This document shows positions 12,736-63,139 of a DNA stretch of 64,000 bases, piece after piece. The position numbers and the translations under genes were made by a program. The notes beneath the pieces were generated by a model. It worked only from the letters and a program-made list of their open reading frames with translations, was not told where the DNA came from and searched no databases. Origin of the DNA: Eubacteriales bacterium (GTDB lineage Bacteria > Bacillota > Clostridia > Oscillospirales > CAG-272); NCBI GenBank assembly GCA_045531485.1, contig JAZSEC010000018.1:3170-67169 (forward strand), given 5' to 3'. Numbering within the stretch: the first letter of the stretch is position 1; every line of letters begins with the position of its first letter.

Positions 12736-12871
12736 CGGCTTACTCCATGTCTTATTTTGCTATATTATATCATCAAAATCCCTCTCAGTCAAGAAGAAAA
12801 AATATTGACATAAAAGGATATTTGTGCTAAAATAATTACAGAGGAAAATGACATATCAAGGAGGTGCTTTT

Positions 12872-13159: not shown

Positions 13160-13171
13160 AAGAATATTCAG

Positions 13172-13207
13172 ATCGCAGGCTTTTAGCCTGCGATTTTTCT
13201 TTTTTCT
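13172..13207 (+). terminator. Rho-independent terminator
   Basis: ATCGCAGGC-TTTT-AGCCTGCGAT followed by TTTTTCTTTTTT. Confidence 0.65.
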
Positions 13208-13273
13208 GTTGATTTTTATTTTAGTTATGATATAATAGGCTTGAAAAAAAGCTCAGCCGAAAGGAAAAATAAA

Positions 13274-44600: not shown

Positions 44601-44629
44601 TTGACTTTAGGTAGTTTTCAAGTTATAAT
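44601..44629 (+). promoter_or_regulatory. Near-consensus promoter at the head of the SipW/TasA-type locus
   Basis: TTGACT, 17-nt spacer, TATAAT, 65 nt upstream of the 44694 ATG. Confidence 0.55.
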
Positions 44630-46050: not shown

Positions 46051-46788
46051 ATGGGAACCAGTATGGAAATTTTGTTTATGGTGTTCATGGTTGTAGTTTC
46101 CGTTATTGCACTGTTTGCAGTAATGGTAGTACTCAGGGATATCATAAAAGAGATCCTCGACGCTCGCAAGAAGGAAAAAAATTGCAAGTGTGACGAAGAG
46201 CCCGCTGCACCCGCACCCGCTCCCGCTGCACCCGCACCCGCTCCTGTTGCACCTACTCCCGTAGTAGAGCCTGTAGCAGAGCCCAAACCTGTAGAGCCCG
46301 CCGAGGAGACCGCTGCACCTGCAGAAGAGTCCGCGACAGAAGAAGATGGTAAAATCAGCTTTGCAGCAGGACAGCAGCAGACCATTGATGAGAAGTATCT
46401 CGAGCTTTCTCCCGAGGCAAAGGGCTGGTATGATGAGATCATCAAGCACGCCGCTATCGTTGAGGGCAGCAGACGCTTCAAGAACGCACGCTATGAGGAA
46501 TACAAGGTTGGTAACAACCGTCTTGTACGTATGCTCATTAAGCGTGGTGTAGTTCACTGTGAGTTTATTTTACACAACTCCGATTTCAAGAACTACGTAA
46601 ACGAGAATAAGATCTCTGTAAGACAGGCAGCGACCACCATGCGTATCGACAGCAAGGATACCGTTGACGCAGCTAAGAACAGCATTGACATCGTCGTAGC
46701 GGCTATTGCTGAGGAGCGTGAGTACAAGAAGCAGCTTGCAAGAGAAAAGCGTAAGGCAGCAAGAGAGCTTGCCGCAGCAGGTAAGTAA
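46051..46788 (+). CDS. Single-pass membrane protein with a Pro/Ala-rich linker and a basic C-terminal domain (unknown function)
   Basis: AGGAG RBS. An N-terminal TM helix is followed by positive charges, suggesting the C-terminus is cytoplasmic. 'PAAPAPAPAAPAPAPVAPTPVVEP' is encoded partly by a perfect 21-bp x2 tandem (46201-46242). No family recognised. Confidence 0.55.
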   Translation: MGTSMEILFMVFMVVVSVIALFAVMVVLRDIIKEILDARKKEKNCKCDEEPAAPAPAPAAPAPAPVAPTPVVEPVAEPKPVEPAEETAAPAEESATEEDGKISFAAGQQQTIDEKYLELSPEAKGWYDEIIKHAAIVEGSRRFKNARYEEYKVGNNRLVRMLIKRGVVHCEFILHNSDFKNYVNENKISVRQAATTMRIDSKDTVDAAKNSIDIVVAAIAEEREYKKQLAREKRKAARELAAAGK

Positions 46789-46914: not shown

Positions 46915-47550
46915 TTGACAAAAAGAAAAAGAAGCGTGCTGCTATCCTTCGTGACGCTGATGCTTTGCTCGGCACTCGTTGTGGGTGGTTCGTATGCACT
47001 CTTCTCCGATCAGGTAGCTCTTACAACACATCTGAAGGCAGGCACACTCGATATCACTCTCGAGCGTACCGATCTTACGTCAAGGACCTTGGATTACAGC
47101 ACCGGTTTCCTTACCGATAAAAATAATCCTGAGATAGTTGATTTCTCCGGTCCCACCGATAGAAACGTGTTTGACCTTGGTATCGACGATAAGATCGTTC
47201 CCGGTTGCAGCTATGCGGCAACTATGAAGCTTACCAACAGGACCGACGTGGCGTTTGCTTATTGGATCCAGGTTGTAAACAGAGATGGCGACGTGGTTGA
47301 TCTTGCAGATCAGCTTCTCGTTACCGTAACCACTAAGGACGGTATCGTAGTTGACGGTATGGTCAGCGACGGTCTTCGGGTTGGCAGCTCCGTAAATCCT
47401 ATTGGAGTAATGGCAATCGGCGATGCCGAAAGCTTTGTGGTAACCCTTGAGTTCCTTGATCTTCCCAACAACAATCTCGCAAAATCCCAGAGCCTTAACT
47501 TCGACGTCGTGGTTCACGCCGTTCAGGTTACAGAGGCACCCCAGCAATAA
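46915..47550 (+). CDS. TasA/camelysin-family protein with SipW-cognate signal (class 'ALF[ST]')
   Basis: TTG start 9 nt after AGGAGG. 'GGSYALFSDQVALTTHLKAGTLDITL' resembles the CalY/TasA N-terminus. C-terminus '..SQSLNFDVVVHAVQ'. Confidence 0.8.
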   Translation: MTKRKRSVLLSFVTLMLCSALVVGGSYALFSDQVALTTHLKAGTLDITLERTDLTSRTLDYSTGFLTDKNNPEIVDFSGPTDRNVFDLGIDDKIVPGCSYAATMKLTNRTDVAFAYWIQVVNRDGDVVDLADQLLVTVTTKDGIVVDGMVSDGLRVGSSVNPIGVMAIGDAESFVVTLEFLDLPNNNLAKSQSLNFDVVVHAVQVTEAPQQ

Positions 47551-47656: not shown

Positions 47657-48340
47657 ATGCAAAACAAAAAGAAAATTTTGTTTTCCTCAATCGTGACAAT
47701 CGCTATCTGCTTTTGTCTGATCACCGGTTCTACGTTCGCACTTTTCACAAGTGAGAGCGACCTGAACATTGCAATCACCTCCGGTAACGTTGAGCTTACT
47801 GCATCCATCAGTGCAGTTGATCTCTACTCTATCAGAGCACTTCGCGATGGCGAGACCGCCGAGACCTACGATGAGTACAATCACGGCTACGTTTTCGAGC
47901 AGCAGCAGAACGGCACCTTCGCAAACGGTGGCTCCGCAGCTCTCGCTAACGGCAACGAGCTTACTCTCAGCAGAGTAACTCCCGGTGACAAGGTTCGCCT
48001 TACCGTTGCTACCGCTAACACCAGCGACGTTATCATCAAGGCTCGCTACACCGTTTCCTGCGAAGCAGGCGATGCTCTTGCACAGGTTCTCGTTATCAGA
48101 GTTCTTGACGCTCAGGGCAACGTTGTTGAAGAGTTCCAGGGCATCGACGAGTACGTTTCCGCTTGGGAGACCCTTCAGGTTGGTGCTAATATGACCAACG
48201 CTTACCTCGAGATCGAGCTTCCCGCAACCACCGGTAACTCCTATCAGCACAACCAGCTTGTAGCTGCTGATCCTAACTACACCGGCGTTGAGCTTCTCAT
48301 CCACGTAGAGGCAGTTCAGGGCAACGGCACTATCGACTAA
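47657..48340 (+). CDS. TasA/camelysin-family protein (class 'ALF[ST]')
   Basis: 'TGSTFALFTSESDLNIAITSGNVELT' N-terminus, 'GNSYQ....HVEAVQ' C-terminus, 227 aa. Confidence 0.8.
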   Translation: MQNKKKILFSSIVTIAICFCLITGSTFALFTSESDLNIAITSGNVELTASISAVDLYSIRALRDGETAETYDEYNHGYVFEQQQNGTFANGGSAALANGNELTLSRVTPGDKVRLTVATANTSDVIIKARYTVSCEAGDALAQVLVIRVLDAQGNVVEEFQGIDEYVSAWETLQVGANMTNAYLEIELPATTGNSYQHNQLVAADPNYTGVELLIHVEAVQGNGTID

Positions 48341-48451: not shown

Positions 48452-49042
48452 ATGTTCCGTTCTAAAAATATTAATAGCACGTTTATCATGGCGGGATTAG
48501 TTATACTGATTTGCCTGGTTTCGCTAACGGGTGCAACTCTTGCACTCTTTACATCCAATCCCGATGACGGAAAAATCGGTGTTATTGCCACCACCGGTAA
48601 CGTTAAGATCGACATCGTAGATGCAAAGACTGAGGATACGCTTATTGACGATGTTCTTCAGTTCAAGGCTGCAGACGGTGAGGCGGGTATCCTGTTTGAA
48701 CCCGGTGCAACCTTCTATACAGTCGGCTTTAAGGCTAAAAACGTTGGTGACATTCCCGTCAACTTCCGTATGTACATCAGCGAGGACGAAAGTCTTGATA
48801 TGGATGAATTTGAAAAGGCCTTTGAATTTTACATAACCACCGATCCCGAGAATCCTACCGATGCAGAGAAGCTTCTTAACTTCACCGGCAGGCTTGAGGT
48901 TGGTCAGAGTAGCGATACCTACTATCTTGTTATCAGGATGAAGGAGGATGCTACCAATGATTTTCAGGGCAAGGTATACACGGGTATCGGCATCACCGTA
49001 TGTGCGGTACAGGGCAACGTGAATATAGAAGGATTAGACTAA
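48452..49042 (+). CDS. TasA/camelysin-family protein (class 'ALF[ST]')
   Basis: 'TGATLALFTSNPDDGKIGVIATTGNVKIDI' N-terminus, 'TNDFQGKVYTGIGITVCAVQ' C-terminus, 196 aa. Confidence 0.8.
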   Translation: MFRSKNINSTFIMAGLVILICLVSLTGATLALFTSNPDDGKIGVIATTGNVKIDIVDAKTEDTLIDDVLQFKAADGEAGILFEPGATFYTVGFKAKNVGDIPVNFRMYISEDESLDMDEFEKAFEFYITTDPENPTDAEKLLNFTGRLEVGQSSDTYYLVIRMKEDATNDFQGKVYTGIGITVCAVQGNVNIEGLD

Positions 49043-49043
49043 A

Positions 49044-49862
49044 ATGAAAGAAAAGGTTAAAAAGATAATCAACATTTCAACAAAGGTACTGACCTGGCTG
49101 CTCGTTGTCTTTACCGTCTTTATGATGATATTTACAATAGTTACGGTTTTAACCGTTAACAAGAACGAGCGAAGCATCTTCGGCTATAAGTTCTACATTG
49201 TACAGACCGACTCAATGAGCGAGTCTGAAAACAATGCCGATATGGAAGTACACTTTAACGCAGGTGATATTATTATCATCAAAAACCTTAAGGATCCTAC
49301 CACACTCCAGGCTGGCGACATAATCGCGTTTATGTCTGCCAATAAGGAGAGCTGGGGCGAGACCATCACCCATATGATCCACGAGGTTAAAAAGGATGAA
49401 AACGGCAAGACTGTTGGCTACGTTACCTTCGGTACCAACACGGGTGCTATTGACGATGCTGTCGTAACTCCCGAAACGGTGCTTGGTAAGTACACAGGTA
49501 AGCTTCCCATAGTCGGAAGATTCTTTGCCTTTGTTAAATCCACTCCCGGCTACATTGTATGTATCCTCGTACCCTTCCTTCTGCTTATCCTTTACAACGG
49601 TGCGAACGTAATCATTCTGTTCCGTAAGTATAAGAAGGAGCAGACCGACGCGATCGCCGCTGAGAGAAAGCAGATCGAGGATGAACGTGCCGAGGCACAG
49701 CGTATGATGGCCGAGCTGCTTGAGCTTAAGGCTCAGCTTATGAAAAACGGCGGCGGGGAATCAGCCCCGAATGCCGAGGCTACTGCCGAGACCGAAAAGG
49801 CCGACGCAGACGAATCGGAGTCTGACTCCGATGACACAGAGTCCCACAAGGACGATAATTGA
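49044..49862 (+). CDS. sipW: SipW-type signal peptidase I, copy 2 (divergent boxes, long acidic tail)
   Basis: 'IFGYKFYIVQTDSMS' (Ser box), 'ETITHMI' (His box), 'FGTNTGAIDD' in place of GDN, a second TM helix and then a coiled-coil/acidic tail of about 85 aa. The ATG lies 1 nt after the preceding stop. Confidence 0.78.
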   Translation: MKEKVKKIINISTKVLTWLLVVFTVFMMIFTIVTVLTVNKNERSIFGYKFYIVQTDSMSESENNADMEVHFNAGDIIIIKNLKDPTTLQAGDIIAFMSANKESWGETITHMIHEVKKDENGKTVGYVTFGTNTGAIDDAVVTPETVLGKYTGKLPIVGRFFAFVKSTPGYIVCILVPFLLLILYNGANVIILFRKYKKEQTDAIAAERKQIEDERAEAQRMMAELLELKAQLMKNGGGESAPNAEATAETEKADADESESDSDDTESHKDDN

Positions 49863-49910: not shown

Positions 49911-51593
49911 ATGACTAACACTTCTACAAAGCGTGCACTGTTTTCCAGTGTTGTTTCGCTCTTCCTCTGCTTTGTAATGCTCATGGGTACAACCTTCGCA
50001 TGGTTCACCGACGTTGCGACCAGTGAGGGCAACGTAATCCAGGCAGGTACCCTTGACGTTCAGCTCTTCAAGCACGATGCTACAGGTAGCACCGAGATTA
50101 CCGATTCCAGCGATCCCATCTTCGGCAAGGCTGATTCTGCTAATGCAAATGCAAACACCGCAGACACCCTTTGGGAGCCCGGTAAGACTCAGACCGTTTA
50201 CCTTTCTATCAAGAACAACGGTTCTCTTGATCTCAAGTACACCGTTGCTATCGAGGTTACTAACATCGAGAATAATCTTAACGAGGTTCTCTACTACGTT
50301 ATCACTCCCGATGCAACCGTTGCAAGCCCTGTAACCAAGGATACTCTTCCCAGCAACTGGGATACCTGCAACAAGGTAGAGGCTGGTATCAACTTCGCTT
50401 CTGATGGCGACACCGCTCTTCAGGCAGGTGGCGAGCACTTCTTCGCTCTCTCCGTACATATGGATGAGGATGCAGGCAACGAGTATCAGGAAGGCAACGT
50501 TACCTTCAACATCAAGGTTCTTGCAGGCCAGCTTTCTTCTGAGGAAGACAGCTTCGGTGCTGACTATGACCTGGATGCTATCTATCCCGAAGGATTTGTA
50601 ACTCTTCCCGCTGACGACGAGTTCCCCGTAGCAGGTTATGAGATTCCTTACTACCTTGACGGCGAGAAGATCGGTACCATCACCGTTCCTGCTGCAGCTC
50701 TTCCCGAGGGCTCCAGAAACCTTGTTTACACAGTTACTCCTACCCAGGTAGATTCTAACTTCTCTGTAACCGCTGCTCAGACTTATGCATTCGACATTGA
50801 GGTTATCGGTCTTGTAGAGAACAACACCGCTCCCATCCTTACCGAGGTTCGTATCGACAAGGATATCGAGGGCGAAATCGCTGTTTACCACAACAACACC
50901 GAGCGTATTGAGATCGACTCTTACAACCCCAATACCGGTATGGTTAAGTTCTACACCACCTCCTACAGCCCCTTCGTTGTTGTTGTTGACGAAGAGGTTG
51001 AGATCACCGATTTCACCGTTCCTCAGGCAGTAGTTACCTACCTTCCCGAGTATGTTAACAACGCTAACATCGAGTGGGGTCAGTATGACAACTGGTCTCC
51101 TGTTTCCGGTGTTGAGGCTAACCTTGACGTTTGCTTCAGCTTCACCTCTCTTCATGACACCGACACTGTTACTCAGTGCCTCTACAAGGATTGGTACGTA
51201 GATTTCGTAGTATCTCTTGATTCTCCTCTTGGCGAGAACCAGATCTTCCTTGGCGGTAACTACGGTTCCTTCGGTTGGGTAGGCTTCCATAACAGAGACC
51301 TCACCCTCGATGCTAACTATGAGGTTCCCCTTCTTGGTTCTGTTACCGGTGGTGACGAGAGAGTCAGCGGTTGGAGATATGAGGATATCGTAAACTACGT
51401 TGGCGGCTTTATCTGCGGCGTAGGTAACGTTGGTGATAACCTTGACGGTGCAACTGTTACTGTTGTTCTTCGCCTTACCAACCCCGAGAACCTTAATGAT
51501 CAGATCGACGTTAGCACAATTACTTACACCTTCGATGGCGATACTTACACCATCAACGGCGAAGAGTTCACCAAGACCACTGTTAACGAGTAA
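49911..51593 (+). CDS. 560-aa secreted protein: N-terminal TasA-like domain (class 'FAWF[TS]') plus C-terminal extension
   Basis: 'GTTFAWFTDVATSEGNVIQAGTLDVQL' ... 'DAGNEYQEGNVTFNIKVLAGQ' ... 'SFGADYD'. GGAGG RBS. Confidence 0.82.
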   Translation: MTNTSTKRALFSSVVSLFLCFVMLMGTTFAWFTDVATSEGNVIQAGTLDVQLFKHDATGSTEITDSSDPIFGKADSANANANTADTLWEPGKTQTVYLSIKNNGSLDLKYTVAIEVTNIENNLNEVLYYVITPDATVASPVTKDTLPSNWDTCNKVEAGINFASDGDTALQAGGEHFFALSVHMDEDAGNEYQEGNVTFNIKVLAGQLSSEEDSFGADYDLDAIYPEGFVTLPADDEFPVAGYEIPYYLDGEKIGTITVPAAALPEGSRNLVYTVTPTQVDSNFSVTAAQTYAFDIEVIGLVENNTAPILTEVRIDKDIEGEIAVYHNNTERIEIDSYNPNTGMVKFYTTSYSPFVVVVDEEVEITDFTVPQAVVTYLPEYVNNANIEWGQYDNWSPVSGVEANLDVCFSFTSLHDTDTVTQCLYKDWYVDFVVSLDSPLGENQIFLGGNYGSFGWVGFHNRDLTLDANYEVPLLGSVTGGDERVSGWRYEDIVNYVGGFICGVGNVGDNLDGATVTVVLRLTNPENLNDQIDVSTITYTFDGDTYTINGEEFTKTTVNE

Positions 51594-51629
51594 TTCTTAG
51601 TAAGTAGTTTTTAATTACTAACTAAAAAC

Positions 51630-51655
51630 GCCACCCGACCTTCGGGTCGGGCGGC
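51630..51655 (+). other. GC-rich hairpin with TTCG loop after the 560-aa gene
   Basis: GCCACCCGACC-TTCG-GGTCGGGCGGC. No 3' T-run on the + strand; the T-run is on the minus strand. Confidence 0.7.
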
Positions 51656-51726
51656 AATAAAAGGGCATAAGGCTTATATTATATATAATAATTAATATGT
51701 AGTTTTTTTGTGCGTTTTTATTGCCG
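51652..51726. repeat. 11-bp inverted repeat CGGCAATAAAA / TTTTATTGCCG bracketing a 52-bp AT-rich core
   Basis: Arms at 51652-51663 and 51716-51726. The same arms recur at 55222-55233 and 55386-55397. Confidence 0.75.
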
Positions 51727-51794
51727 ATAGGCAACGGGGTCTTACCCCGCAGCGAAATATCCCTATTGAAAAAATACATATAGGAGTTTTCATC

Positions 51795-54700
51795 ATGAAA
51801 AACACAAAGCACTCTATCCGCACAAGCTTAACAGCGTTGCTTTTATGCTTCGCTATGCTTCTCGGAACGACATTCGCGTGGTTTACCGATGTAGCTGTAA
51901 GCTCGGATAACCTTATTCAGGCAGGTAGCCTTGATATCGCTCTTATGAAGGGTACGCCCAACGGTGACGGAACCTGGACTTGGGTAGAAAATAACGGCGA
52001 GGCTATCTTCGATTATGACAAATGGGAGCCCGGCTATACCACCTGGGCTGCACTTGCTGTTGAGAACCACGGCACCCTTGCTGCAAAGTGGCAGGCAATG
52101 CTTACTCTCGACGGTACACCCTCTATTCTTGCAGACGTGATCGAGGTTTATTCTACTTACGATCATATCTTCGATCCCGATACCCGTCCCGATTTTACCG
52201 ACGGTACTTGGAGAAAGATGGGTACAGTTCGCGAGCTTCTTGACAATGACGGTATGCTTCTCAGCGGCGACTTTATCGAGCCTGAACACCGTCAGCCTAT
52301 CGTTATCGCTCTCCACATGGTAGAGGATGCAGGTAACGAGTATCAGGGACTTAACCTCGGTGCAAACTTTAACATCAAGGTTATGGCAACTCAGGCAAGC
52401 TTTGAAAACGACTCCTTTGGCGACGACTACGACGCAGATGCAGAATGGCCTGATGATTTCAAGTTCGAGACATCTACCGGTGTTGATCAGCTTCAGATCC
52501 TTAATAACGAGCTTGTAAATCCCTTTATCATCAGATATAACGACTCGATCTATGCCGAGCTTTCCGCAGGCACAAAGCTTGCAGCAGGCGTAACCGAGAT
52601 CAAGTTCTCCGGTAGAACTGCCGATGGCGAGAACAATCTTACTCTTGGTGAGGGCGACAGTGCTAAGGATTACGATATTCACATCGAGGGTATCGCAGAG
52701 GATAACACCCAGCCTATCAAGGTCTACCTTGGCAAGCTTCTTCAGCCCGGCCTTGACAAGACCTCTCTTAAGCTCTACCACGAGGACACCCAGATGACCA
52801 GAGTTGACAGCGTTGCTGATTTCCTTACCAACAACCAGTTCTTCTATGACGTTCAGACCGGTGAGGTTGTTATCTACGTAGATAATTTCTCTGTATTCAC
52901 CAGTGTTACTACTTCTGCTGTGGCATGGAGTGGCGATGCTGCTAATGCATTTGCTTCGGGTGCAGGCACAGAGGATAATCCTTATGTAATTAAAACTCCC
53001 GAACAGTTTGCATATTTCAGAAATCAGGTTGACGCCGGTAACTCCTTCAAGGGTAAGTATGTTAAGCTTGATGCAGATATCAATCTTAATAGAATTCCCT
53101 TCGATCCCATCGGATTTGGTTACTGGAATGAATCTAAAGTTGATGCAAACGGTAATGATACAAACACCGTATTCATGGGTACCTTCGACGGTGGAAATCA
53201 CACCATCTATAACCTTTACGAGAACTGCTGGGAGCTTGATACCGCCCAAAACAATTACAGCACCTATACATACAGCACCGCGGGTGCAGGTCTTTTCGCT
53301 TCTATTAAGAATGCTACTATTAAGAACCTTATGATTAACGGTGCAGAGATCGTTTTCGAGTGCGTTGATATGGGTATTGTTGTTGGCTATGCTCAGGGAG
53401 AATGTCACTTCGAGAACATCGTTGTTGCTAATGCAAATATTGCAAACTACAACCGTTATACCGGTGGCGTAGTTGGTGAGGTTAGCTACGGTGTAGATAA
53501 TAACGGTGATGGCTTCAGCCACACCTTCAAGAATATTACCGTTGACTCTACCGTTACCGTTTCCGGCCTTTGGGGATCCTTTGGCTGCGGTATGGGCGGT
53601 GTAATCGGTGGTAAGTGGGGCGATGCAACCGTTAAGATGGAAAACGTTGTTTCCGCTCCTGTAATGGACGTATATAATGACGTTGTTTCCGCTTACCAGT
53701 GGTACGCATTCCGTGGTTGCGGTATGCTTATCGGCCACACCGAGGAGCCTTACTCCGACGGCAGAACATCCGGCAAGGCAACTGCAGACTTCCTTACTTG
53801 TGAGAGCGTTACCGTTTACTATGGCGATTGGGTAAATCAGACATATTATCAGTTTGCAAAACAGACCGATAAGGACGGCAACAGACTTTGGTACAGTGAT
53901 TATCCTTGGGTAAGAGTTGAGCCCGGTAATTATTGCGATGCTTACTCTAATATCAGATACGGTATTCCCCAGGTTAACGGTGTTAAGGTTACCGAACTCA
54001 GTCCCGAAGAGTTCGAGAAGGCTGTTACAGACAAGGTTTCCATTCCCTTCGATCAGCTTTACGGTGCAGACCGCGGTATGTATGGTCAGTCAGAACACCC
54101 CGGTGTAACCGTATTAAGAGCTGCGTACACTACCAAGACTGTATACTTTGAGAACAACCAGAATTGGGAAAACGTTTACATCTACTATTGGTGCCAGAAC
54201 GGTAACGATGAGTGGGATAACAACGCATTCCCCGGTCAGCCTATGACCCTCGTTCAGTCTTCTACTGAAGGTGCTCATGATGTCTACTCCTTTAAGGTTC
54301 CTAGCTTTGCTAAGGGCTTCATCTTCTCTGATGGTAAGGAAGTAAACCTCGAACACAAGCATTACCAGACTATTGATATTGATGTAGCTGGAGATGTTGA
54401 TAATGTAATCTTTTGTCTTAATGAAATTGACTACGAACAGGTTGTAGAAGGAAACAAGGTAGATTATAAGTATTCTGTCAAGTCTTCTCAGTATAAAGAT
54501 GGTTATTCGACCGTTTATTTCAAGAACGGATTCCTGTGGGATAAGGTTGAAATGTATTATAACATAGGTGATGACACAAGTGGTAGTTGGTCTAAAGGAA
54601 CAGTAAATCTTCTTGGATATGATGGATCTTACGAATACTATAGCATCATTGTTCCTAATTATGCTACAACATTTAATATTAGCGGTGAAAAGAATACCGG

Positions 54701-55166
54701 TACTGGAGAACGCGAGTCGACAGTTGATATTAGTGTTAGCGGATTGACAGAAAACGTGATGTATGCACCCAGTGGTACAAGTAACAGCGGCGTAACAATA
54801 ACTACATCTTCCTTTAATGCAAGTGTAATTAAAGACGGATACAAGTTGCTCTATTATAAGCCTTCGTCTGATTGGTACAATGACAATGCTAGATTTGCAG
54901 CTTATGTTTTTAAAGGATCGAAAAACGAATGGTATAACGTCAATAAGTATTCAGATGGCATTTGTAAGGTTTGGGTGTCTACTTCTTACAGTAATATCAT
55001 TTTCTGTCGTATGAATCCCGCTTATACAACAAACAGTTGGGATGAAAACAATAAGGATTATGTTTGGAATCAAACGGCGGACCTTACAATACCTACAGAC
55101 AGCAATAATATGTTTAAACAAAATTCAGGATGGGATGGCGTAAGCGGCACTTGGTCCACAAAATAA
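51795..55166 (+). CDS. 1123-aa secreted protein: TasA-like N-domain + Ig-like + beta-helix/GLUG-like core + three CBM-like C-terminal modules
   Basis: 'GTTFAWFTDVAVSSDNLIQAGSLDI' ... 'DAGNEYQGLNLGANFNIKVMATQASFENDSFGDDYD' ... 'GTEDNPYVIKTPEQFAYF' ... 'GTFDGGNHTIYNL'. The C-terminal modules resemble 'TVYFENNQNWENVYIYYW'. The ATG at 51795 follows AGGAG. Confidence 0.85.
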   Translation: MKNTKHSIRTSLTALLLCFAMLLGTTFAWFTDVAVSSDNLIQAGSLDIALMKGTPNGDGTWTWVENNGEAIFDYDKWEPGYTTWAALAVENHGTLAAKWQAMLTLDGTPSILADVIEVYSTYDHIFDPDTRPDFTDGTWRKMGTVRELLDNDGMLLSGDFIEPEHRQPIVIALHMVEDAGNEYQGLNLGANFNIKVMATQASFENDSFGDDYDADAEWPDDFKFETSTGVDQLQILNNELVNPFIIRYNDSIYAELSAGTKLAAGVTEIKFSGRTADGENNLTLGEGDSAKDYDIHIEGIAEDNTQPIKVYLGKLLQPGLDKTSLKLYHEDTQMTRVDSVADFLTNNQFFYDVQTGEVVIYVDNFSVFTSVTTSAVAWSGDAANAFASGAGTEDNPYVIKTPEQFAYFRNQVDAGNSFKGKYVKLDADINLNRIPFDPIGFGYWNESKVDANGNDTNTVFMGTFDGGNHTIYNLYENCWELDTAQNNYSTYTYSTAGAGLFASIKNATIKNLMINGAEIVFECVDMGIVVGYAQGECHFENIVVANANIANYNRYTGGVVGEVSYGVDNNGDGFSHTFKNITVDSTVTVSGLWGSFGCGMGGVIGGKWGDATVKMENVVSAPVMDVYNDVVSAYQWYAFRGCGMLIGHTEEPYSDGRTSGKATADFLTCESVTVYYGDWVNQTYYQFAKQTDKDGNRLWYSDYPWVRVEPGNYCDAYSNIRYGIPQVNGVKVTELSPEEFEKAVTDKVSIPFDQLYGADRGMYGQSEHPGVTVLRAAYTTKTVYFENNQNWENVYIYYWCQNGNDEWDNNAFPGQPMTLVQSSTEGAHDVYSFKVPSFAKGFIFSDGKEVNLEHKHYQTIDIDVAGDVDNVIFCLNEIDYEQVVEGNKVDYKYSVKSSQYKDGYSTVYFKNGFLWDKVEMYYNIGDDTSGSWSKGTVNLLGYDGSYEYYSIIVPNYATTFNISGEKNTGTGERESTVDISVSGLTENVMYAPSGTSNSGVTITTSSFNASVIKDGYKLLYYKPSSDWYNDNARFAAYVFKGSKNEWYNVNKYSDGICKVWVSTSYSNIIFCRMNPAYTTNSWDENNKDYVWNQTADLTIPTDSNNMFKQNSGWDGVSGTWSTK

Positions 55167-55203
55167 CCCCTAGCTATTTAAAAAGTTAAACAAATTAAAA
55201 GCC

Positions 55204-55221
55204 CCCGACCTTCGGGTCGGG
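55204..55221 (+). other. Hairpin with TTCG loop after the 1123-aa gene
   Basis: CCCGACC-TTCG-GGTCGGG. It sits within a 30-nt stretch identical to the one at 51633-51663. Confidence 0.7.
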
Positions 55222-55397
55222 CGGCAATAAAAGTACATAAAAATGACGTGCAATGCTCGTTTCTGCAAAACCTCATCCACCGCGATGCGGTCCCCCTTCT
55301 CCAACAGAGAAGGCTTGCAGATCATACCTCTCCGATAAGGCGAGGATTCAGGGTGTTTTACTGCAATATTGTAAACATTTGTGTGCTTTTATTGCCG
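55222..55397. repeat. 12-bp inverted repeat CGGCAATAAAAG / CTTTTATTGCCG bracketing a 152-bp core
   Basis: Arms at 55222-55233 and 55386-55397. The core contains an ACCTCATCC-type repeat copy. Confidence 0.75.
55270..55314 (+). repeat. ACCTCATCC + two-hairpin repeat unit (diverged copy)
   Basis: ACCTCATCC, then ACCGC-GAT-GCGGT, then CCTTCTC-CAACA-GAGAAGG. Confidence 0.6.
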
Positions 55398-55446
55398 AAT
55401 ATGGCAAGAAATCGGGTTATTATTAAAAAATTACATAAAGGAAAAA

Positions 55447-58400
55447 ATGCTAATGAAAGACACAAGACGTTCATTGCTCACAAGCACTATTTCATTGCTG
55501 CTCTGCTTTGTTATGCTGCTTGGAACAACCTTCGCTTGGTTTACCGACATCGCTGTCAGCGAGGGTAACGTAATCCAGGCGGGTAAGCTTGACATCGAGC
55601 TGATGCAGGCGACAAAAACCGCTTCCGGTTGGGATTGGCAGTCCGCTTCGGGCAAGGCAATCTTCGACTATGATAAGTGGGAGCCCGGCTATACCACAAC
55701 CGCAGTTCTCGGCGTGCAGAACAACGGCACCCTCTCTGCAAATTGGACCGCTAAGCTTGTTCTTAACGGCACACCCACTATTCTTGCAGACGTTATCGAG
55801 ATTTACGTAACCAGCTATAAGAATTATCCCGATGCCCGCCCCGACTTTAATGACGGAAATTGGCAGAAGCTCGGTACCGTTCGCGACATTCTTGACAATG
55901 ACGGTCTTATTCTTCCCGGCGGTCAGATCGATCCCGGCCGTCGTCAGCCTATCCTTGTTGCTCTCCACATGAGAGAGGATGCAGGCAACGAGTATCAGGG
56001 ACTTAACCTCGGTGCTAACTTTGATATCGTAATCATGGCGACCCAGGCATCTGCAGAGTCCGACTCCTTCGGCAGCGACTATGACACCGATGCTAAGTGG
56101 CCCGAGATTCCTTCCGTTGGCAACAGTGCCAGTGCGAACGTTACTCTCGATGAGAATAACCTCCTCACCGAAGAGGTTACAATGACCAGTGCGGATGGCA
56201 AGATCTCTGCCACCCTTCCCGCAGGCACAAAGCTGCTCCCCGGCACAACAACCGTAAAGCTTGTTATAGCCGACAAGGAGAACAGCGAGGCTAACCTTAC
56301 CCTTGACGATAACCAGGCGAGTCTTTCTCTCGACGTACACGTCACCGGCATCGCTGATGATAACGACAAGGCAATCAAGGTTGAGCTTGGCGAGGTGCTT
56401 CCTACCGGTCTTAATATGGGTAACTATAACCTCTATCACGTAGAGGACGGTCAGACCAACATTATGACCCTTCTTGATGACACCGTAGGCATCGGCCACA
56501 ACACCTATGCATACGATCCCTCTAACGGTAAGGTTGTCGTATATATGGCATCCTTCTCGGAGGTTACTCTTGTAGCCGAGCCCGCTAAGTGGGAGGGTAA
56601 TTTTGATTACTCCTGGTATACAAACGCGGTTGCTCCTGTTGATGGTGAGTCCACAGCAGATTATGTAATCGCAAATGCTGACCAGCTTGCAGCCTTTGGT
56701 GCAATCGTTGGCGGTATGAACGGTCAGACTCAGGATTCCTTCTCGGGCAAGACCGTAAAGCTTATTTCCGATATCAACCTTGGTGACAAGGAGTCGGAGA
56801 ACAACCCCGACATCATCTTCTATCCCATCGGTTACTACAATTCCGAGGGAACCTATGAGAGAACTAACACCGCTATCACCTCCGGACTTAAAAACTTCGA
56901 GGGTACCTTCGACGGTAACGGTCACACAGTTTCTAACTTCTACCAGAACACCTGGGAAATGAAGGGCGATCATAACTGGTACAGCCCTGAGGAGCAGTAT
57001 TACCGCGACGGTATGGGTCTGTTCGGTAGAGTTTACGGCGGTACAGTTAAAAACCTTACTGTAAAGAACTTCTCCTCCGACGGTGAGATCGCTACTACCG
57101 GTGTTATCGCTGCTTACGCAGACGGTGCCACCTTTGAAAATATCGCGATCTTTAACTGTAATCCCAGAGTATATAACATCGGCAACGGCGGTATCGTTGG
57201 TTGCGTTGGTTGGTACGCTAAGGAAGCGAACCTTAAGACCACATTCACTAACATCACCGTTGATAACTCTAACAAGATCTCCGCACTTTGGGGCTCTTAT
57301 GACGTAGCATGCGGCGGTATCGTTGGTCAGTATTATCCCACCAGCGGCCAGACCTCTGCAGGCACTCCCAAGAACGCAGGTATTGAGTTTACCAACTGCC
57401 ACGTTTCCGCGGTTATGGACGTTTACAACGACGTTTGTGCGAACTATCAGTACTACGCTTACCGTTACACCGGTATGCTTATCGGCTCCGTTCGTGAGAA
57501 CGTTGAACAGAACGGTCACGTATATCCCGATATGACCGGCATCACCGCTGAGAACTGTACAGTTCACTTTGGTGACTGGAACGACTATTACTATTGCGAG
57601 ATCGTTGCAAACTCTCTCGCATCTTATACACACGATCATCAGTTCAGCCGTCTTACTCAGGTGGCATCTGTTGACGTTGAGAATATGAAAGTTACCGACC
57701 TTAAGGGTAACGAAACTGATATTCCTACTTCTGGTTGGGTTCACTACGTTGTAGTTAAAAATAAGGATAACACAACAGGCAAGTGGATCCACGGTGACGG
57801 TTCTAACTATGCAACCTGCTATCACTTTAAGGATGGCGAGGTTTGGACTCACGATAAAGCAGGAACAGAAACCGTCAACGGTGTTGAGGGTGTTCTTAAG
57901 GAAGATAAGCAACTTGTTTACCTCGAGTTCAACAACCTCGTAACCGGCTACGGCTGGGGTGTAACCTCTAAGGGCGTTGGCGATCTCACAGGTGTTACTA
58001 TTCTTGATAGAGCAGAAGGTAATTCTGTTGAAAAGTTTGAAAGCGATGTAACCGAGCTTTCGAACAATAGAGAATATAAGCTTAGTGAAATCTTCACTCT
58101 AATTGAAAACACAGGCGTTGAACTTGTTCCCGGTGCTCTTGCAGTAAGTGTTACTAACCTTGAAGAAAATAATCTCGTTTCTGCGACTATCGTTTATGAT
58201 AGAAACAACTGGGAAAACAGCACAATCACACTTACCGGTGATGGTAAGGTTAAGATCACCATTCAGGACTACTACTTCTGTACTCCTACTACCATTGAGG
58301 TAACTGTTACAGATCGTCAGCCTGAAGAAAAGTTTGAACTTGTATTCCAGAATACTGAAAAATATCTTTATAAGATTGGTAATGTAAATACCGTAAAGCT

Positions 58401-61400
58401 TGGTCAGTTGTTCAAGGCTAAGGATGGTGCAGAAATCGGCACTGTTTCTGTAAAAGTTGCGGCGGTTGAAGGATCCGGTGCAAGCGGTGTATACACAAGC
58501 AACGCAACTTGGACCAATGGAACAATCCAGTTCTCCGGCACAGGCGTTGTAAAGGTTACCATTACCGATAACGATTACTGCACACCTACTGTGCTTTACC
58601 TCGAGGTTGTTGATGCAGTAAATGCAACCACAGCAACAAGTGCAACAGCTAATAACGTTGTACTTCTTAATGACATTTCAAGCGGCTTTACCGTATCCGG
58701 CAGATATGCAGTATATGGCAACGGCTTCACACTGAACTACACCGGCAACGGTCAGTATCTCAACAACGGTCTTAAGCAGGGTATTGTTACCGTTTCTGGA
58801 AACGGCACACTTGACAACCTTAGAATTAAGGCAAGCATTTATCCCACTTCTTATCTGTATTATGAACAGGTAAAGAAGGGTCCTTCTTCTGTAGAAGGAG
58901 ATAAGACCAGATACCACTATCAGCTTTCTGCAGTAGCGGCGTCTGAAAATGCAACAATTTCTAACTGCTATATTTACGGCGGAAGAAATAATATCTATAT
59001 TGGAACAGGTAACGTAACCGTTAAGGATACGGTTCTTGAATGCGGTACTGTTTCTAATATCCAAATTATTAGCAATGATAGTCACACCATAACCTTTGAA
59101 AATCTTACTACCATCCAGTACCTTGTAAGTCCTACTGTATTTGACGATGAAGAAACACAGAAAGACTTTAAGATGATTGGCTTTGGTATCTTTGTTGGTG
59201 ACGGTGACGCTGATATAATTCCCACTAACCCCAAGCTTGTCTTTAACGGCGACTTGAAGCAGTATAACTGGGTAAGCGAAACCGAAGTAAACGGTGTTAA
59301 TAGCAACAACTCCGGATACATTGAGAATGCTCTTAATGCAGCTATTGGAAACGAAACATATAAGCGTGATGACGGTACTGCAAATATGGGCGTTGTATTC
59401 CTGAATAACCAGACTACTAACATCGAAAATAATACAGGAATAGATTATCAGCTTGGTGAAATTTCGATTATGAATGTTACGGGTCAGGTTTACTCTATTC
59501 CTAAGACCGAAACCGAAATTTATACCGATTATGCAAACGCTGACAGATCTACTGTAAACGGACTCTACGTTCCTCAGTTTAAGTATCCTGCAGACCTTGG
59601 TGGTCAATACATCGAAAAGACCGATGATGGTGACGAATTTGTTTATCGTGAGGGTGATGTAATTTATGTAATGTTCCCCTCCGGTGATAGTAAGGAACTT
59701 GATCTTGCGGCTCTTGTAAATATTGTAAAATATACCGGTCAGGATCTTGGTCTTGTTATTACAGTTAAGGATGGTAATGGAAATGCTGTCGCTGTAAATA
59801 ATGGAAAGATTACACTTTCCGCAGCAGAAGAATACACTATAACTTACACTGTAACCGATACTCTGTTCTATGATAAGGGTGGAAACACTGTTGATGGTAC
59901 AGAAATGTATTCTTGGGATGTAACTGTATCTGTTTCCCTCAAGGACACAGCAGTTCCCAACGCATACTTTACATACGATACCACAAAGCAGACTATGGGA
60001 TATGCGAAGAAGAGTGTCTTTTCTGGTGGTCAAACTCAGTATCTTCCCTTCCTTGCAGGTCTTAAGATTTATGACTATGTTGGACAGAATGCATATCTCA
60101 GATTTGACGGTGATAGCGACTTTAGTAAGATTGCTTCTGCTGAAATCACCGGATATACAAGTGCAAATCACGTTCTTATCAAAGTAACGCTTACCGACGG
60201 CGGTGTTATTAACATCGATACAACCGCAAGAGCGGCGTCGGGTGGTTCTACATATACAGGAAAGCTTCAGACAAGCGGCAACACTCTGTACTATGTAAAC
60301 GACGGTACTACAAGTGCAACAACTACAACTTGGGTAATTTCCAGTTACAAGTTTGTAGGTAACAACGGTGTTGAAATTGACTCTGGTGCTGTTACCTTCT
60401 CAAACTGCGAGAATGGAAGTGTTCCTACCGGTTCCTTCAGCACTACAATTAAGTACACTGTAACCTATGATGCAAATGGTGGTGACTGCGGTCAGACCGT
60501 TGGTTATGCTACATCTGCTGCAACAGCAGTGACCCTTCCCACACCCACTCGTAGCGGTTACACCTTCACAGGTTGGTATACAGCAGCGAGCGGTGGTGAA
60601 AGAGTTGGTGGTGCAGACGACAGCTACACACCTTCTGCAAACATCACTCTCTATGCACAGTGGGGCACGCCTTCTACTGTAACCTATGATGCAAATGGTG
60701 GTTCTTGTGGTACTGCAAGCGAAAAATTTGACGGTAAGACCCTCATTCTTCCCGAGGCTACAAGAGATGGTTACACCTTCCTTGGTTGGTATACGGCAGC
60801 TACAGGCGGTGAAAGAATAGGACCTGCTGGTATGAGCTATAATCCTACAGGAGATATTACCCTCTATGCACAGTGGCAGTTGCCTATCACCGTAACCTAT
60901 GAGGTAAATGGCGGTTCTTGTGGAACTGAAAATGAAGTTTATGATGGTGATTTGACTCTTCCTACCCCCACTCGTACAGGTTACGACTTCCTTGGTTGGT
61001 ATACAGCAGAAACCAATGGTACGAGAGTTGGTGGTGCAGGCGAAAGCTACACACCTTCTGCAGATATCACTCTCTATGCTCAGTGGGAACAGATTAGTTA
61101 CACAATTACTACTGATGAGAATAAAGCAACTGTAACCGTTGATAAGACTTCAGCACATTATGGCGATACTGTTACCGTAACAGTTTCATTCTCAGAAAAC
61201 AATGACAAATCTCTTACAGTAACGGACGCAAGTGGAAATGAAGTTCTTAGTAAGTCTGCTGCGGGTACTTATACATTTACAATGCCTGCAAGTAATGTAA
61301 CCATTAAAGCAAGTAGTTCTGGCACATGCTTCACTCCCGACACTCTTATCACTCTTGCAGATGGTACTCAGGTACGCGTTGATTCGCTGACCGGTGAAGA

Positions 61401-62028
61401 GATGCTTCTCGTTTGGAACCATCAGACCGGTGCATTTGAGAGCGTTCCTGTGGCTTACATCGTAAACCACGGTGGAGAAAAGTCTGAGCAGGAGATTACT
61501 CACCTCTACTTCTCCGACGGAAATGAAATTAAGATTATTGGAGAGCACGTATTCTTTGACGTAACACAGAATAAGTACGTATCCATTACAAGCGAAAATG
61601 CAGAAGAGTATATCGGTCACCTGTTCACAGGTATAAACGGCACCAATGATGCTCTTACTACCATTGAGCTTACAAAGGTTGAAAGATACGTTGAGGAAAC
61701 CGAGGTTTACGAGGTTGTTTCCTATGAGCATCTTACATGCTTCACCAACAATATTCTTTCCACCTCCGCATATCTTGACAAGCTGTTAAATATCTTTGAC
61801 ATCAATCCTGACACTATGGCATACTCTGCTGAGCTTGTGCAGAAGGATATTGAAACCTATGGCTTGTACACTTATGCAGACTTCGAGGGATTGATTTCCG
61901 AAGAAGCATTTGAAATGTATAACGCGTCTTACCTCAAGATTGCGGTAGGCAAGGGATACATAACATGGGATGATATTCTTGATTTGATTGACATCTACTT
62001 TGCAGCAGAGGTTAATCCTATTCAGTAA
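55447..62028 (+). CDS. 2193-aa secreted protein: TasA-like N-domain + Ig-like + beta-helix regions + 3 Listeria-Bacteroides repeats + C-terminal Hint domain and 86-aa tail
   Basis: 'GTTFAWFTDIAVSEGNVIQAGKLDI' ... 'DAGNEYQGLNLGANFDIVIMATQ' ... 'GTFDGNGHTVSNF' ... 'NATISNCYIYGGRNNIYIGTGNVTV'. Three 'VTYDANGG..GY.F.GWYTA..GG.R.G....Y.P..DITLYAQW' repeats follow. The Hint domain starts at 'CFTPDTLITLADGTQVRV'. Confidence 0.85.
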   Translation: MLMKDTRRSLLTSTISLLLCFVMLLGTTFAWFTDIAVSEGNVIQAGKLDIELMQATKTASGWDWQSASGKAIFDYDKWEPGYTTTAVLGVQNNGTLSANWTAKLVLNGTPTILADVIEIYVTSYKNYPDARPDFNDGNWQKLGTVRDILDNDGLILPGGQIDPGRRQPILVALHMREDAGNEYQGLNLGANFDIVIMATQASAESDSFGSDYDTDAKWPEIPSVGNSASANVTLDENNLLTEEVTMTSADGKISATLPAGTKLLPGTTTVKLVIADKENSEANLTLDDNQASLSLDVHVTGIADDNDKAIKVELGEVLPTGLNMGNYNLYHVEDGQTNIMTLLDDTVGIGHNTYAYDPSNGKVVVYMASFSEVTLVAEPAKWEGNFDYSWYTNAVAPVDGESTADYVIANADQLAAFGAIVGGMNGQTQDSFSGKTVKLISDINLGDKESENNPDIIFYPIGYYNSEGTYERTNTAITSGLKNFEGTFDGNGHTVSNFYQNTWEMKGDHNWYSPEEQYYRDGMGLFGRVYGGTVKNLTVKNFSSDGEIATTGVIAAYADGATFENIAIFNCNPRVYNIGNGGIVGCVGWYAKEANLKTTFTNITVDNSNKISALWGSYDVACGGIVGQYYPTSGQTSAGTPKNAGIEFTNCHVSAVMDVYNDVCANYQYYAYRYTGMLIGSVRENVEQNGHVYPDMTGITAENCTVHFGDWNDYYYCEIVANSLASYTHDHQFSRLTQVASVDVENMKVTDLKGNETDIPTSGWVHYVVVKNKDNTTGKWIHGDGSNYATCYHFKDGEVWTHDKAGTETVNGVEGVLKEDKQLVYLEFNNLVTGYGWGVTSKGVGDLTGVTILDRAEGNSVEKFESDVTELSNNREYKLSEIFTLIENTGVELVPGALAVSVTNLEENNLVSATIVYDRNNWENSTITLTGDGKVKITIQDYYFCTPTTIEVTVTDRQPEEKFELVFQNTEKYLYKIGNVNTVKLGQLFKAKDGAEIGTVSVKVAAVEGSGASGVYTSNATWTNGTIQFSGTGVVKVTITDNDYCTPTVLYLEVVDAVNATTATSATANNVVLLNDISSGFTVSGRYAVYGNGFTLNYTGNGQYLNNGLKQGIVTVSGNGTLDNLRIKASIYPTSYLYYEQVKKGPSSVEGDKTRYHYQLSAVAASENATISNCYIYGGRNNIYIGTGNVTVKDTVLECGTVSNIQIISNDSHTITFENLTTIQYLVSPTVFDDEETQKDFKMIGFGIFVGDGDADIIPTNPKLVFNGDLKQYNWVSETEVNGVNSNNSGYIENALNAAIGNETYKRDDGTANMGVVFLNNQTTNIENNTGIDYQLGEISIMNVTGQVYSIPKTETEIYTDYANADRSTVNGLYVPQFKYPADLGGQYIEKTDDGDEFVYREGDVIYVMFPSGDSKELDLAALVNIVKYTGQDLGLVITVKDGNGNAVAVNNGKITLSAAEEYTITYTVTDTLFYDKGGNTVDGTEMYSWDVTVSVSLKDTAVPNAYFTYDTTKQTMGYAKKSVFSGGQTQYLPFLAGLKIYDYVGQNAYLRFDGDSDFSKIASAEITGYTSANHVLIKVTLTDGGVINIDTTARAASGGSTYTGKLQTSGNTLYYVNDGTTSATTTTWVISSYKFVGNNGVEIDSGAVTFSNCENGSVPTGSFSTTIKYTVTYDANGGDCGQTVGYATSAATAVTLPTPTRSGYTFTGWYTAASGGERVGGADDSYTPSANITLYAQWGTPSTVTYDANGGSCGTASEKFDGKTLILPEATRDGYTFLGWYTAATGGERIGPAGMSYNPTGDITLYAQWQLPITVTYEVNGGSCGTENEVYDGDLTLPTPTRTGYDFLGWYTAETNGTRVGGAGESYTPSADITLYAQWEQISYTITTDENKATVTVDKTSAHYGDTVTVTVSFSENNDKSLTVTDASGNEVLSKSAAGTYTFTMPASNVTIKASSSGTCFTPDTLITLADGTQVRVDSLTGEEMLLVWNHQTGAFESVPVAYIVNHGGEKSEQEITHLYFSDGNEIKIIGEHVFFDVTQNKYVSITSENAEEYIGHLFTGINGTNDALTTIELTKVERYVEETEVYEVVSYEHLTCFTNNILSTSAYLDKLLNIFDINPDTMAYSAELVQKDIETYGLYTYADFEGLISEEAFEMYNASYLKIAVGKGYITWDDILDLIDIYFAAEVNPIQ

Positions 62029-62572: not shown

Positions 62573-63139
62573 ATGGGCCTTTTCGATCTCTTCAAAAAGA
62601 AGCAGTCTGACGAGAACAATGGCGTTAACGCGGATAAAATTTTCATTCGTAACGTCGGCGTGTCTTTCGTAGGAATAATCATCTGCATCGTGATGCTGTC
62701 CGCATCAAGCTATGCCTGGTTCAGCACCACCATCGAGTCCAACAACTCCATAACCTCCTCTGTTTATAAGCTGGATATCGGCGTCGTTGAAGAGGATGGC
62801 GGGGTTACTCCGCTGACCGCTACGGTTACCGAGAACGGCGACTACGTTTACAGCCTCGAGGCAGGGAAGACCTATACGGTCACCATCACCGCCCTGGCAG
62901 AAAACACCACCGGCAAGACAGGTTACATAAAGCTCCGTACGAGCAAGATGGCAGAGGACGACCGTGCCCTCTACTCCGAGCAGATCGACCGCGGTGATAC
63001 CATCAGCTTCAACCTCCATTACACCGACTCCACCGACGTTACCATCATCGAGGGCTGGGGAATGTCCAGCGTCCCCGAGGACGAAAGAGATATTCTGAAC
63101 GGTGGCTCCTACGGCGATTCTACCGCAAATGGAAGCTGA
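62573..63139 (+). CDS. 188-aa protein with a SipW-cognate-type signal (divergent)
   Basis: GGAGG RBS and a long n-region, then 'MLSASSYAWFSTTIESNNSITSSVYKLDI'. It lacks the C-terminal NxYQG...Q strand motif. Confidence 0.65.
   Translation: MGLFDLFKKKQSDENNGVNADKIFIRNVGVSFVGIIICIVMLSASSYAWFSTTIESNNSITSSVYKLDIGVVEEDGGVTPLTATVTENGDYVYSLEAGKTYTVTITALAENTTGKTGYIKLRTSKMAEDDRALYSEQIDRGDTISFNLHYTDSTDVTIIEGWGMSSVPEDERDILNGGSYGDSTANGS

Follow-up and report, generated by a model that had tools for sequence, protein, structure and literature searches.

The TasA-like N-terminal module of giant proteins from uncultured gut Clostridia, a candidate surface tether

The DNA stretch studied here (the window; 64,000 nt) belongs to the genome of an uncultured, spore-forming gut Clostridia bacterium, which, judged by the best related loci, is probably of the Acutalibacteraceae or another group of Oscillospirales. 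Three large genes are found in its + strand at positions 49911–62028. They are intact open reading frames (ORFs) coding proteins of 560, 1123 and 2193/2191 amino acids (aa), located at 49911–51593, 51795–55166 and 55447/55453–62028, respectively, and they are the distal part of a + strand TasA/SipW-type filament operon that extends from ~44.6 to beyond 64.0 kb. All three proteins start with a TasA-like module (the N-module). Comparative analysis suggests that this N-module may tether proteins to Gram-positive cells in a manner that is widespread and has no published description. What is new is the large-scale, modular use of a TasA-like N-module in bacteria and the comparative evidence for anchoring; the principle has precedents in TapA and TafC (see below).

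The N-module, its conservation and its exchange

The SipW-type signal model TIGR04088 (NCBIfam) matches the 560-, 1123- and 2193-aa proteins with 25.9, 21.4 and 23.9 bits, respectively (cut-off 19). The Pfam family Peptidase_M73 (PF12389; TasA/camelysin) scores 25.2, 23.0 and 19.8 bits in the same order against a gathering score of 22.5, the value for the 2193-aa protein being under threshold and the matches in the large proteins spanning residues ~7–99 only. PF12389 is matched by 55 of 59 family representatives (best E 4e-12). A profile of the N-module (122 sequences) found no match in the PDB by sequence or profile search, and the relationship to TasA had therefore to be tested by fold. Residues 1–420 of the 1123-aa protein were modelled with AlphaFold2 from the 122-sequence alignment. 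The model features a jellyroll at aa 48–200 with a predicted local distance difference test score (pLDDT) >90; residues 30–40 are a low-confidence coil (pLDDT 42) and the junction that ends the module (see below) is a coil of moderate confidence. Searching the PDB with the modelled N-domain by Foldseek returned as its top two matches the two solved TasA-family filaments: 8AUR, the TasA fibre (E 7e-5, probability 1.0), and 7UEG, the archaeal bundling pilus (E 8e-4). Judged by this model, the N-domain of the large proteins has the TasA fold. The initial annotation, which had recognised the module in all three proteins from the sequence, is borne out by their SipW signals, by the Foldseek matches and by thousands of matching protein clusters. 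A single-sequence AlphaFold2 run on the 560-aa protein gave no usable model (pLDDT 43).

The junction SFG.DYD.DA.WP is conserved in all three large proteins. It was found in the sequences together with the other strings quoted previously: SFGADYDLDAIYP lies at aa 214, SFGDDYDADAEWP at aa 207 and SFGSDYDTDAKWP at aa 205, and GTFDGGNHTIYNL, GTFDGNGHTVSNF and NATISNCYIYGGRNNIYIGTGNVTV are all present in proteins of the window. Conservation was measured as the information content per alignment column in 59 divergent family members. The 20 residues at the mature N-terminus are the most conserved segment of the family (3.40 bits/column), followed by the signal peptide (3.11), the junction (2.74), the jellyroll (2.57) and the region beyond the junction (1.48). 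These ~20 N-terminal residues align with the TasA donor strand, assigned to residues 28–38 of the Bacillus subtilis protein (PMC9674648). The junction occupies the same position as the C-terminal interface segment of TasA (residues 239–261), which is disordered in the monomer and forms an inter-subunit interface in the fibre (PMC9674648). In TasA-like proteins of Bacillaceae the most conserved residues fall in the protomer interface (PMC10151520). On sequence grounds, the profile of the present family suggests a parallel to this pattern of strand and interface in TasA. The large paralogs of the window, which are four when a truncated one at the window end is included (see last section), have a near-identical post-cleavage strand, WFTD[VI]A[VTI]S[SE][GD]N[VL]IQAG.LD[IV]. 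Each ortholog group of the small TasA-like subunits encoded upstream has its own conserved post-cleavage N-terminal strand. Distinct strands in the small subunits and a common one in the large paralogs are as expected for an ordered hetero-assembly with interchangeable tips. An isopeptide lock of the BsaA type (Asn-Lys-Glu) was also considered; the strand has an invariant Asn and the family an invariant Glu, but no Lys is invariant and the lock is not supported.

No LPXTG motif with a transmembrane (TM) segment, C-terminal TM segment, S-layer homology (SLH) domain, cell-wall-binding repeat or dockerin was detected in the three large proteins by Pfam and NCBIfam hidden Markov models (HMMs), regular expressions and hydropathy, which agrees with the first reading of the sequence. 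A C-terminal LPXTG+TM or a C-terminal TM was found in none of 147 complete large ORFs of related loci and in none of 135 representatives, and classical anchor domains of Pfam (SLH, Dockerin_1, CW_binding) in none of 59 representatives. The sole LPXTG-like string is, as noted before, an internal LPTGL; it is present at aa 316, and there is no C-terminal sorting signal. The statement that the proteins lack any other anchor holds for classical anchors; it leaves out a C-terminal Hint module and a CBM26 domain (see last section).

The best available argument that the N-module is a tether comes from orthologs of the 2193-aa protein, where it sits at a position that has repeatedly been filled by surface tethers in evolution. 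Searching with the full-length 2191-aa form yielded 1108 homologs at E<=1e-10, and the N-terminus was classified in the best 120 of them. It is TasA-like in 72, a lipobox-type signal followed by a Gly/Asn/Ser-rich linker in 14, a dockerin in four and an SLH domain in one. Another signal or TM segment with another region, including TM plus a Pro-rich linker, is found in 23, and six are fragments. The Pfam matches to SLH (44.9 bits) and to dockerins (28.8–34.2 bits) are above gathering scores and lie at residues ~32–87 of the orthologs. BLASTP aligns the SLH-bearing P0266 and the dockerin-bearing P0286 with the query from its residues 228 and 218 onwards, respectively, at 61–63% identity, placing the swap boundary directly past the junction (query residue ~218–228). 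The C-terminal tail motif is retained in nearly all N-terminus classes. Dockerin and lipobox variants stand alone, lacking SipW and TasA-like genes within 10 kb. As far as these comparisons go, the TasA-like module is most likely an attachment device.

The architecture is abundant. An exhaustive phmmer search with a 256-residue query of the N-module, against protein clusters at the 50% identity level, matched 5792 clusters at E<=1e-3 and 844 at E<=1e-30, a number that excludes a chance architecture. The match lies always at residues 1–~225 of the target in the best 150 of the 5792. The median length of 142 proteins among the best matches is 686 aa and their maximum 2937 aa. Passengers identified by Pfam in 59 N-module proteins are BspA-type leucine-rich repeats, pectate-lyase-like adhesive domains, beta-helices, CBM77, a pectate lyase, CBM26, Flg_new and Hint. 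Public databases name such proteins hypothetical, leucine-rich repeat protein, InlB B-repeat-containing protein or peptide with SipW-like signal peptide. When GTDB species genomes were scanned, at least 535 N-module loci were confirmed; the best 79 of these are nearly all from metagenome-assembled genomes (MAGs) of gut or rumen Clostridia (Acutalibacteraceae, Oscillospiraceae, Eubacteriales, Lachnospiraceae). The best related loci reach 69% identity, in an Acutalibacteraceae MAG.

Synteny was assessed by classifying the ORFs of the fetched loci with phmmer. The recurring order is the gene of a 165-aa protein, sipW, the genes of the small 211-, 227- and 196-aa subunits, a further sipW, a gene for a ~530–750-aa protein and one to three genes of giant proteins. 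It is found complete in L007, L019 and L022 and partially in L051 and L067–L069. Among the 44 loci of at least 15 kb, 27 have a SipW gene and 31 code two or more large proteins with the TasA-like N-terminus.

Filament tethering and competing explanations

We consider it somewhat probable that the N-module tethers giant passengers to a heteropolymeric TasA-type filament by donor-strand complementation. The proposal builds on what the sequences show: a TasA fold behind a SipW-type signal, conserved gene order, an abundant architecture, no classical anchors and module swapping; from these we infer strand insertion, filament composition, polarity and stoichiometry as well as the roles of the 165- and 560-aa proteins. 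The large proteins would be exported by Sec, and a dedicated SipW peptidase would cut after ..TTFA to expose the N-terminal strand WFTD.A.S..N.IQAG.LD. This strand would enter the jellyroll groove of a neighbouring TasA-like subunit, making of the ~220-residue N-module a non-covalent yet very stable attachment device. The passengers so tied would be the starch-binding CBM26, the Listeria-Bacteroides repeats and large uncharacterised cores. By analogy with the haloarchaeal filaments named tafi, the large protein would donate its strand at the distal end, small subunits with distinct, orthologously conserved strands would provide adaptors and shaft, and the 165-aa protein, whose N-terminus would be kept in the membrane, could act as final acceptor and anchor. 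This mechanism mirrors the strand donation of TapA, whose TasA-type N-terminal strand is the first to be donated (PMC9674648, PMC10151520). It is also in line with the finding that TasA and BsaA tolerate cargo at their C-terminus, TasA-mCherry and BsaA-FAST fusions remaining functional (PMC4982213, PMC11580942).

The 165-aa protein (44694–45191, + strand) combines an N-terminal TM helix with a truncated TasA-like core. In its family the N-terminus is hydrophobic and the [FYL]A[LW]F cleavage motif is found in none of six members; orthologs occur in five loci. It may be a membrane-embedded terminal acceptor of the donor strand, a candidate role read from these sequence features. A broader scheme is doubtful at present: the TasA-type module would be a general, interchangeable surface anchor of uncultured gut and rumen Clostridia, on a par with SLH, dockerin or lipid anchors and used by thousands of giant adhesins and carbohydrate-binding proteins that assemble tip-first onto a heteropolymeric TasA-like pilus ending in a membrane acceptor. 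On the largest of them, a thioester formed by the distal, Hedgehog-like Hint module would let the protein release itself or capture a target covalently.

Several points weigh against filament tethering. The Foldseek TM-scores are low (0.22/0.36); the searched model contains the signal helix and a further domain and represents the monomer state. The 165-aa protein shows weak homology to the jellyroll: hhalign aligns it to the distal two thirds of the N-module jellyroll over 110 columns with a probability of 51% (E 1.5e-4). The swap site is not exclusive to known anchors, as 23 of the 120 orthologs carry uncharacterised N-regions. The closest orthologs of the 1123-aa protein (loci L001–L005; ~1500 aa, <=69% identity over the first 420 residues; ~10001–14500 of each locus) are orphans that have neither SipW nor TasA-like genes within 10 kb, so that assembly in trans would be required or the proteins act alone. 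Moreover, TasA-family proteins are often released matrix components and not bound to cells.

One rival view is that the N-module is only a SipW-dependent unit for export and processing or a matrix-forming domain, the proteins being soluble or embedded in matrix and untethered, which we regard as unlikely. TasA is largely found in the extracellular matrix, and BsaC of Clostridium perfringens, which has a SipW signal and a von Willebrand factor A (vWA) domain, was recovered from culture supernatants (PMC11580942). No SipW gene lies near the orphan orthologs of the 1123-aa protein, and the Pfam match covers mainly the signal region. However, both jellyroll and junction are strongly conserved past the signal peptide, the N-module gives way to SLH, dockerin, lipobox and TM anchors, each of them a tether, and a membrane-tethered TasA-like protein heads the operon. 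It is likewise improbable that the large proteins use their complete TasA-like domains to polymerise among themselves, building their own passenger-bristling fibres or matrix rather than capping a shaft. Every N-module is a full jellyroll with donor strand and groove, the strands of the four paralogs are near-identical, loci L033 and L039 hold four or five TasA-N proteins of 440–640 aa and few small ones, and TasA-mCherry still builds matrix (PMC4982213). A passenger of 900–2000 residues for each ~5-nm subunit would, however, be sterically demanding. The three small subunits with distinct strands conserved in the operon suggest a separate shaft, and the two-domain subunit of tafi is sub-stoichiometric (PMC11821415).

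Anchoring could finally be direct if the jellyroll N-domain were a lectin-like binder of a wall polymer or glycan that needs no donor-strand polymerisation. Jellyrolls are common among carbohydrate-binding modules, which are included in the weak Foldseek matches, and such a function would account for the interchange with SLH and for the orphan loci. We hold it to be very unlikely. The top fold matches are specifically the TasA and archaeal bundling pilus filament subunits, the most conserved segment is the N-terminal strand that is of low confidence and unstructured in the monomer model, and linkage to SipW and small TasA-like genes is tight (27 of 44 long loci).

Comparison to known systems

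Surface display in Gram-positive bacteria is commonly ascribed to sortase and LPXTG signals, SLH domains, LysM or choline-binding repeats, lipoproteins and cohesin-dockerin pairs. Among the closest known systems is TapA-SipW-TasA of B. subtilis (8AUR; PF12389), with which the system described here shares the SipW signal and an adjacent peptidase, the jellyroll and the conserved mature N-terminal strand. TapA, which joins the fibre by its strand alone, is the parallel for an accessory protein. TasA is a single domain of ~230 residues, whereas here the domain is the N-terminal module of proteins of 560–2193 aa, and up to 2937 aa elsewhere, and its sequence identity is too low for phmmer or profile matches to the PDB. 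Several distinct small subunits, two SipW genes and the conserved acidic junction also set the window apart from the B. subtilis system.

The haloarchaeal tafi (TafC tip, TafE adapter, TafA shaft, TafF membrane anchor; PMC11821415, PMC12337348) are likewise donor-strand filaments of the TasA superfamily with a two-domain subunit, minor adapter subunits, a signal peptidase of their own and a terminal acceptor anchored in the membrane. The tip adhesin TafC is formed by an N-terminal pilin-like and a C-terminal adhesin domain and is present at ~1 copy per 100 TafA in purified tafi (PMC11821415). The same order, pilin-like domain first and passenger after it, is met in the large proteins with their CBM26 and Flg_new passengers. 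In contrast to the archaeal, Tat-exported tafi, whose TafC has 38 kDa and one laminin-G domain, the present proteins are bacterial, of the Sec/SipW type and carry passengers of up to ~2000 residues. No twin-arginine RR motif was found in the large proteins, whose N-termini are Lys-rich and of Sec/SipW type. Since these are bacterial genes without a Tat signal, tafi is an analogue and the window system is not a member of it. Several alternative large subunits per operon and a candidate anchor whose TM helix is N-terminal, not C-terminal, are further differences.

The sipW-bsaA-bsaB-bsaC operon of C. perfringens (PMC11580942) is a clostridial SipW operon that also codes TasA-like subunits and a larger vWA protein with a SipW signal, BsaC. 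Its products form membrane-anchored oligomers and the BsaA-FAST fusion is tolerated (PMC11580942). BsaA differs by its Asn-Lys isopeptide lock, for which no invariant Lys is available here, and a TasA-like domain in BsaC is not stated in PMC11580942. Proteins of Clostridia anchored by SLH, dockerin or lipid (cellulosome, amylosome) have the anchor in the same N-terminal position on bodies that are 55–63% identical, and the module swap implies that they are equivalent in function. Unlike binding of SLH to secondary wall polymer, cohesin-dockerin pairing or lipid anchoring, the chemistry is here presumed to be beta-strand complementation. The tip adhesins of chaperone-usher pili (FimH, PapG) are also adhesins fused to a pilin that engage in donor-strand exchange, with distinct strands ordering their incorporation. 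However, their domain order is reversed (lectin N-terminal, pilin C-terminal), FimH lacks a donor strand of its own, and these pili belong to diderm bacteria, need a periplasmic chaperone and an outer-membrane usher, and are evolutionarily unrelated.

The initial annotation had considered such a display mode to be undescribed. Full-text literature searches, some of them poorly targeted, retrieved no paper on large bacterial proteins with a TasA-like N-module, and among literature mentioning PF12389 or TIGR04088 none on multidomain proteins was found. The claim stands in so far as it concerns the bacterial giants, but TapA, TafC and the TasA-mCherry and BsaA-FAST fusions are precedents. If tethering by the N-module is true, it would be a further and apparently very common display route in the least cultured and most abundant gut Firmicutes (Oscillospirales, Lachnospiraceae), and the TasA superfamily would extend from matrix fibre to modular display scaffold. 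The scheme points to a way in which these organisms could bind starch, through CBM26, and other ligands. It would also offer a natural template for the engineering of filament display, a use in which TasA fusions already are. The series in which TasA, SLH, dockerin and lipobox variants are found on one conserved body provides ready-made experimental controls.

Passenger regions and gene cluster layout

The 560-aa protein, encoded directly 5′ of the giants, is composed of N-module and junction (49911–50588), a spacer and a C-terminal domain X (51051–51590). For its C-terminal region 380 homologs were found, of which the best 120 are nearly all 500–590 aa long (family median 548 aa), and 112 of 114 full-length homologs have a TasA-type N-terminus. 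The protein is a dedicated, uniform component. Domain X, the last ~160 residues, has no Pfam or PDB match. By hhalign (98.2%, E 6e-14) it is a homolog of the domain at the N-terminus of giant orthologs without the TasA module, being found once in P0302, P0309, P0310 and P0312, twice in P0366 and in six tandem copies in P0291. It could anchor the protein to the wall, act as a docking partner or be a mere stalk.

In the 1123-aa protein, N-module and junction (51795–52451) are followed by a beta-rich spacer, a conserved uncharacterised core (52980–54074) and a CBM26 domain (PF16738; 54141–54338, aa 784–849; 36.3–40.2 bits for a gathering score of 28.1, E 6e-9). Two further CBM26 look-alike segments are seen by eye downstream but have no HMM match. 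The domain hints at the holding of starch granules, like amylosome components in related Ruminococcaceae. The N-terminal half of the 2193-aa protein has N-module and junction (55447–56103), a spacer and a core (56728–57597). Its C-terminal half bears three Flg_new (Listeria-Bacteroides) repeats (~60298–61137; 8e-42), a Hint module (61327–61758; Cys codon at 61327) and a conserved tail (61759–62025). No HMM or PDB profile confirmed the labels Ig-like, GLUG-like and beta-helix that had been given previously to segments of the two proteins. Neither the core nor the NATISNCYIYGG region matches Glug, Beta_helix or related Pfam families at E<=1; in the alignment of the conserved core two of 24 members match Peptidase_M26_N weakly (0.002), with no PDB match. 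The first reading had overlooked the CBM26, the Flg_new repeats and Hint plus tail, as well as the small 188-aa protein and the fourth large paralog described below.

The first Cys and two His of the Hint module are invariant in the sequences of 20 giants, a feature in common with the Hint domains of bacterial intein-like (BIL) and Hedgehog proteins (6Y75, 6TMM, 1AT0). A profile of the module matches the Hint-fold PDB chains 6Y75/6TMM (E 6e-7) and, weakly, Hedgehog; Pfam Hint is detected in 14 of the 20 members, under the gathering score (20.3 vs 29.7). Differently from BIL and Hedgehog Hint domains, there is no conserved terminal His-Asn in the 20 sequences. Lack of a C-terminal His-Asn plus nucleophile makes splicing unlikely. 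From its sequence, the module probably cleaves on the N-terminal side only, at the invariant Cys, separately from anchoring; it might self-cleave or form a reactive thioester at the distal end of the protein. The module with its tail (~90 aa, acidic, helical; DIE.YGLYTYEDF...KV.VGKG) is also found in ~20 giants of other loci. A polymorphic toxin is unlikely because the tail is not variable as in such toxins: it is conserved in 21 loci (E 1e-14 to 1e-41) and in all N-terminal variants. Hint plus tail was also rejected as the missing anchor, since it is present with every type of N-terminal anchor and kept in orthologs that already carry SLH, dockerin or lipobox.

The cluster is flanked by chromosomal housekeeping and sporulation genes (alaS, uvrC, RNase R, GerA, glycoside hydrolase family 2 enzymes). 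A promoter-like site on the + strand, TTGACT-17-TATAAT (44601–44629; 11/12 consensus matches), lies 5′ of its first gene, that of the 165-aa protein; it is a consensus match only, and shuffled sequence yields at least as many such sites in total. All genes that follow are on the + strand. SipW-like signal peptidase 1 (45212–46000) has a long charged C-terminal tail and matches the NCBIfam models SipW (2.5e-15) and sigpep_I_arch (1.3e-9), both under curated cut-offs. SipW-like signal peptidase 2 (49044–49862) matches SipW at 2.2e-26 and sigpep_I_arch with 63.9 bits (cut-off 51.85). In both paralogs a long, highly charged, coiled-coil-like tail with an acidic Ser/Glu/Asp-rich end extends past the last TM, and two or three SipW genes are present in many related loci as well. 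Between the first peptidase gene and those of the small subunits lies an ORF for a 245-aa protein (46051–46788) with an N-terminal TM helix, a Pro/Ala-rich ((AP)n) linker and an uncharacterised C-terminal domain. It has no credible Pfam match, and its sole ortholog among the fetched loci is in L022.

The three small TasA-like subunits have 211 aa (46915–47550), 227 aa (47657–48340) and 196 aa (48452–49042). The 211-aa subunit matches Peptidase_M73 with 30.9 bits and aligns with other TasA-like domains. The assignment of the 227-aa subunit relies on a Peptidase_M73 score of 20.1 bits, under the gathering score, on alignment and on orthologs. The 196-aa subunit, without HMM match in Pfam and NCBIfam, was identified by alignment and has 19 relatives among the fetched loci. 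Downstream of the 2193-aa gene, and separated from it by a hairpin and an A-rich spacer, a gene (62573–63139) codes a small 188-aa protein with a SipW-type motif (SSYAWFST), a cytoplasmic N-extension and no Pfam match. A gene for a TasA-like protein of ~215–230 aa is similarly located ~1.3 kb 3′ of the giant gene in L015, L020, L024, L026–L028 and L030, which parallels the 188-aa gene of the window. The fourth large paralog (63195–64000), cut by the window end, comprises an N-module (phmmer 3e-88 to that of the 2193-aa protein) and the junction SFDEKYDVDSEWP.

The same GC-rich hairpin, CCCGACCTTCGGGTCGGGCGGCAATAAAAG, is found 3′ of the 560-aa gene (51633–51662) and of the 1123-aa gene (55204–55233), with no T-tract on the + strand, and similar leaders, GTGCGTTTTTATTGCCGATAGGCAA at ~51700–51745 and GTGTGCTTTTATTGCCGAATATGGCAA at ~55381–55420, precede the next large genes. 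Hairpins and leaders may be involved in attenuation or mRNA processing that sets the subunit ratios.

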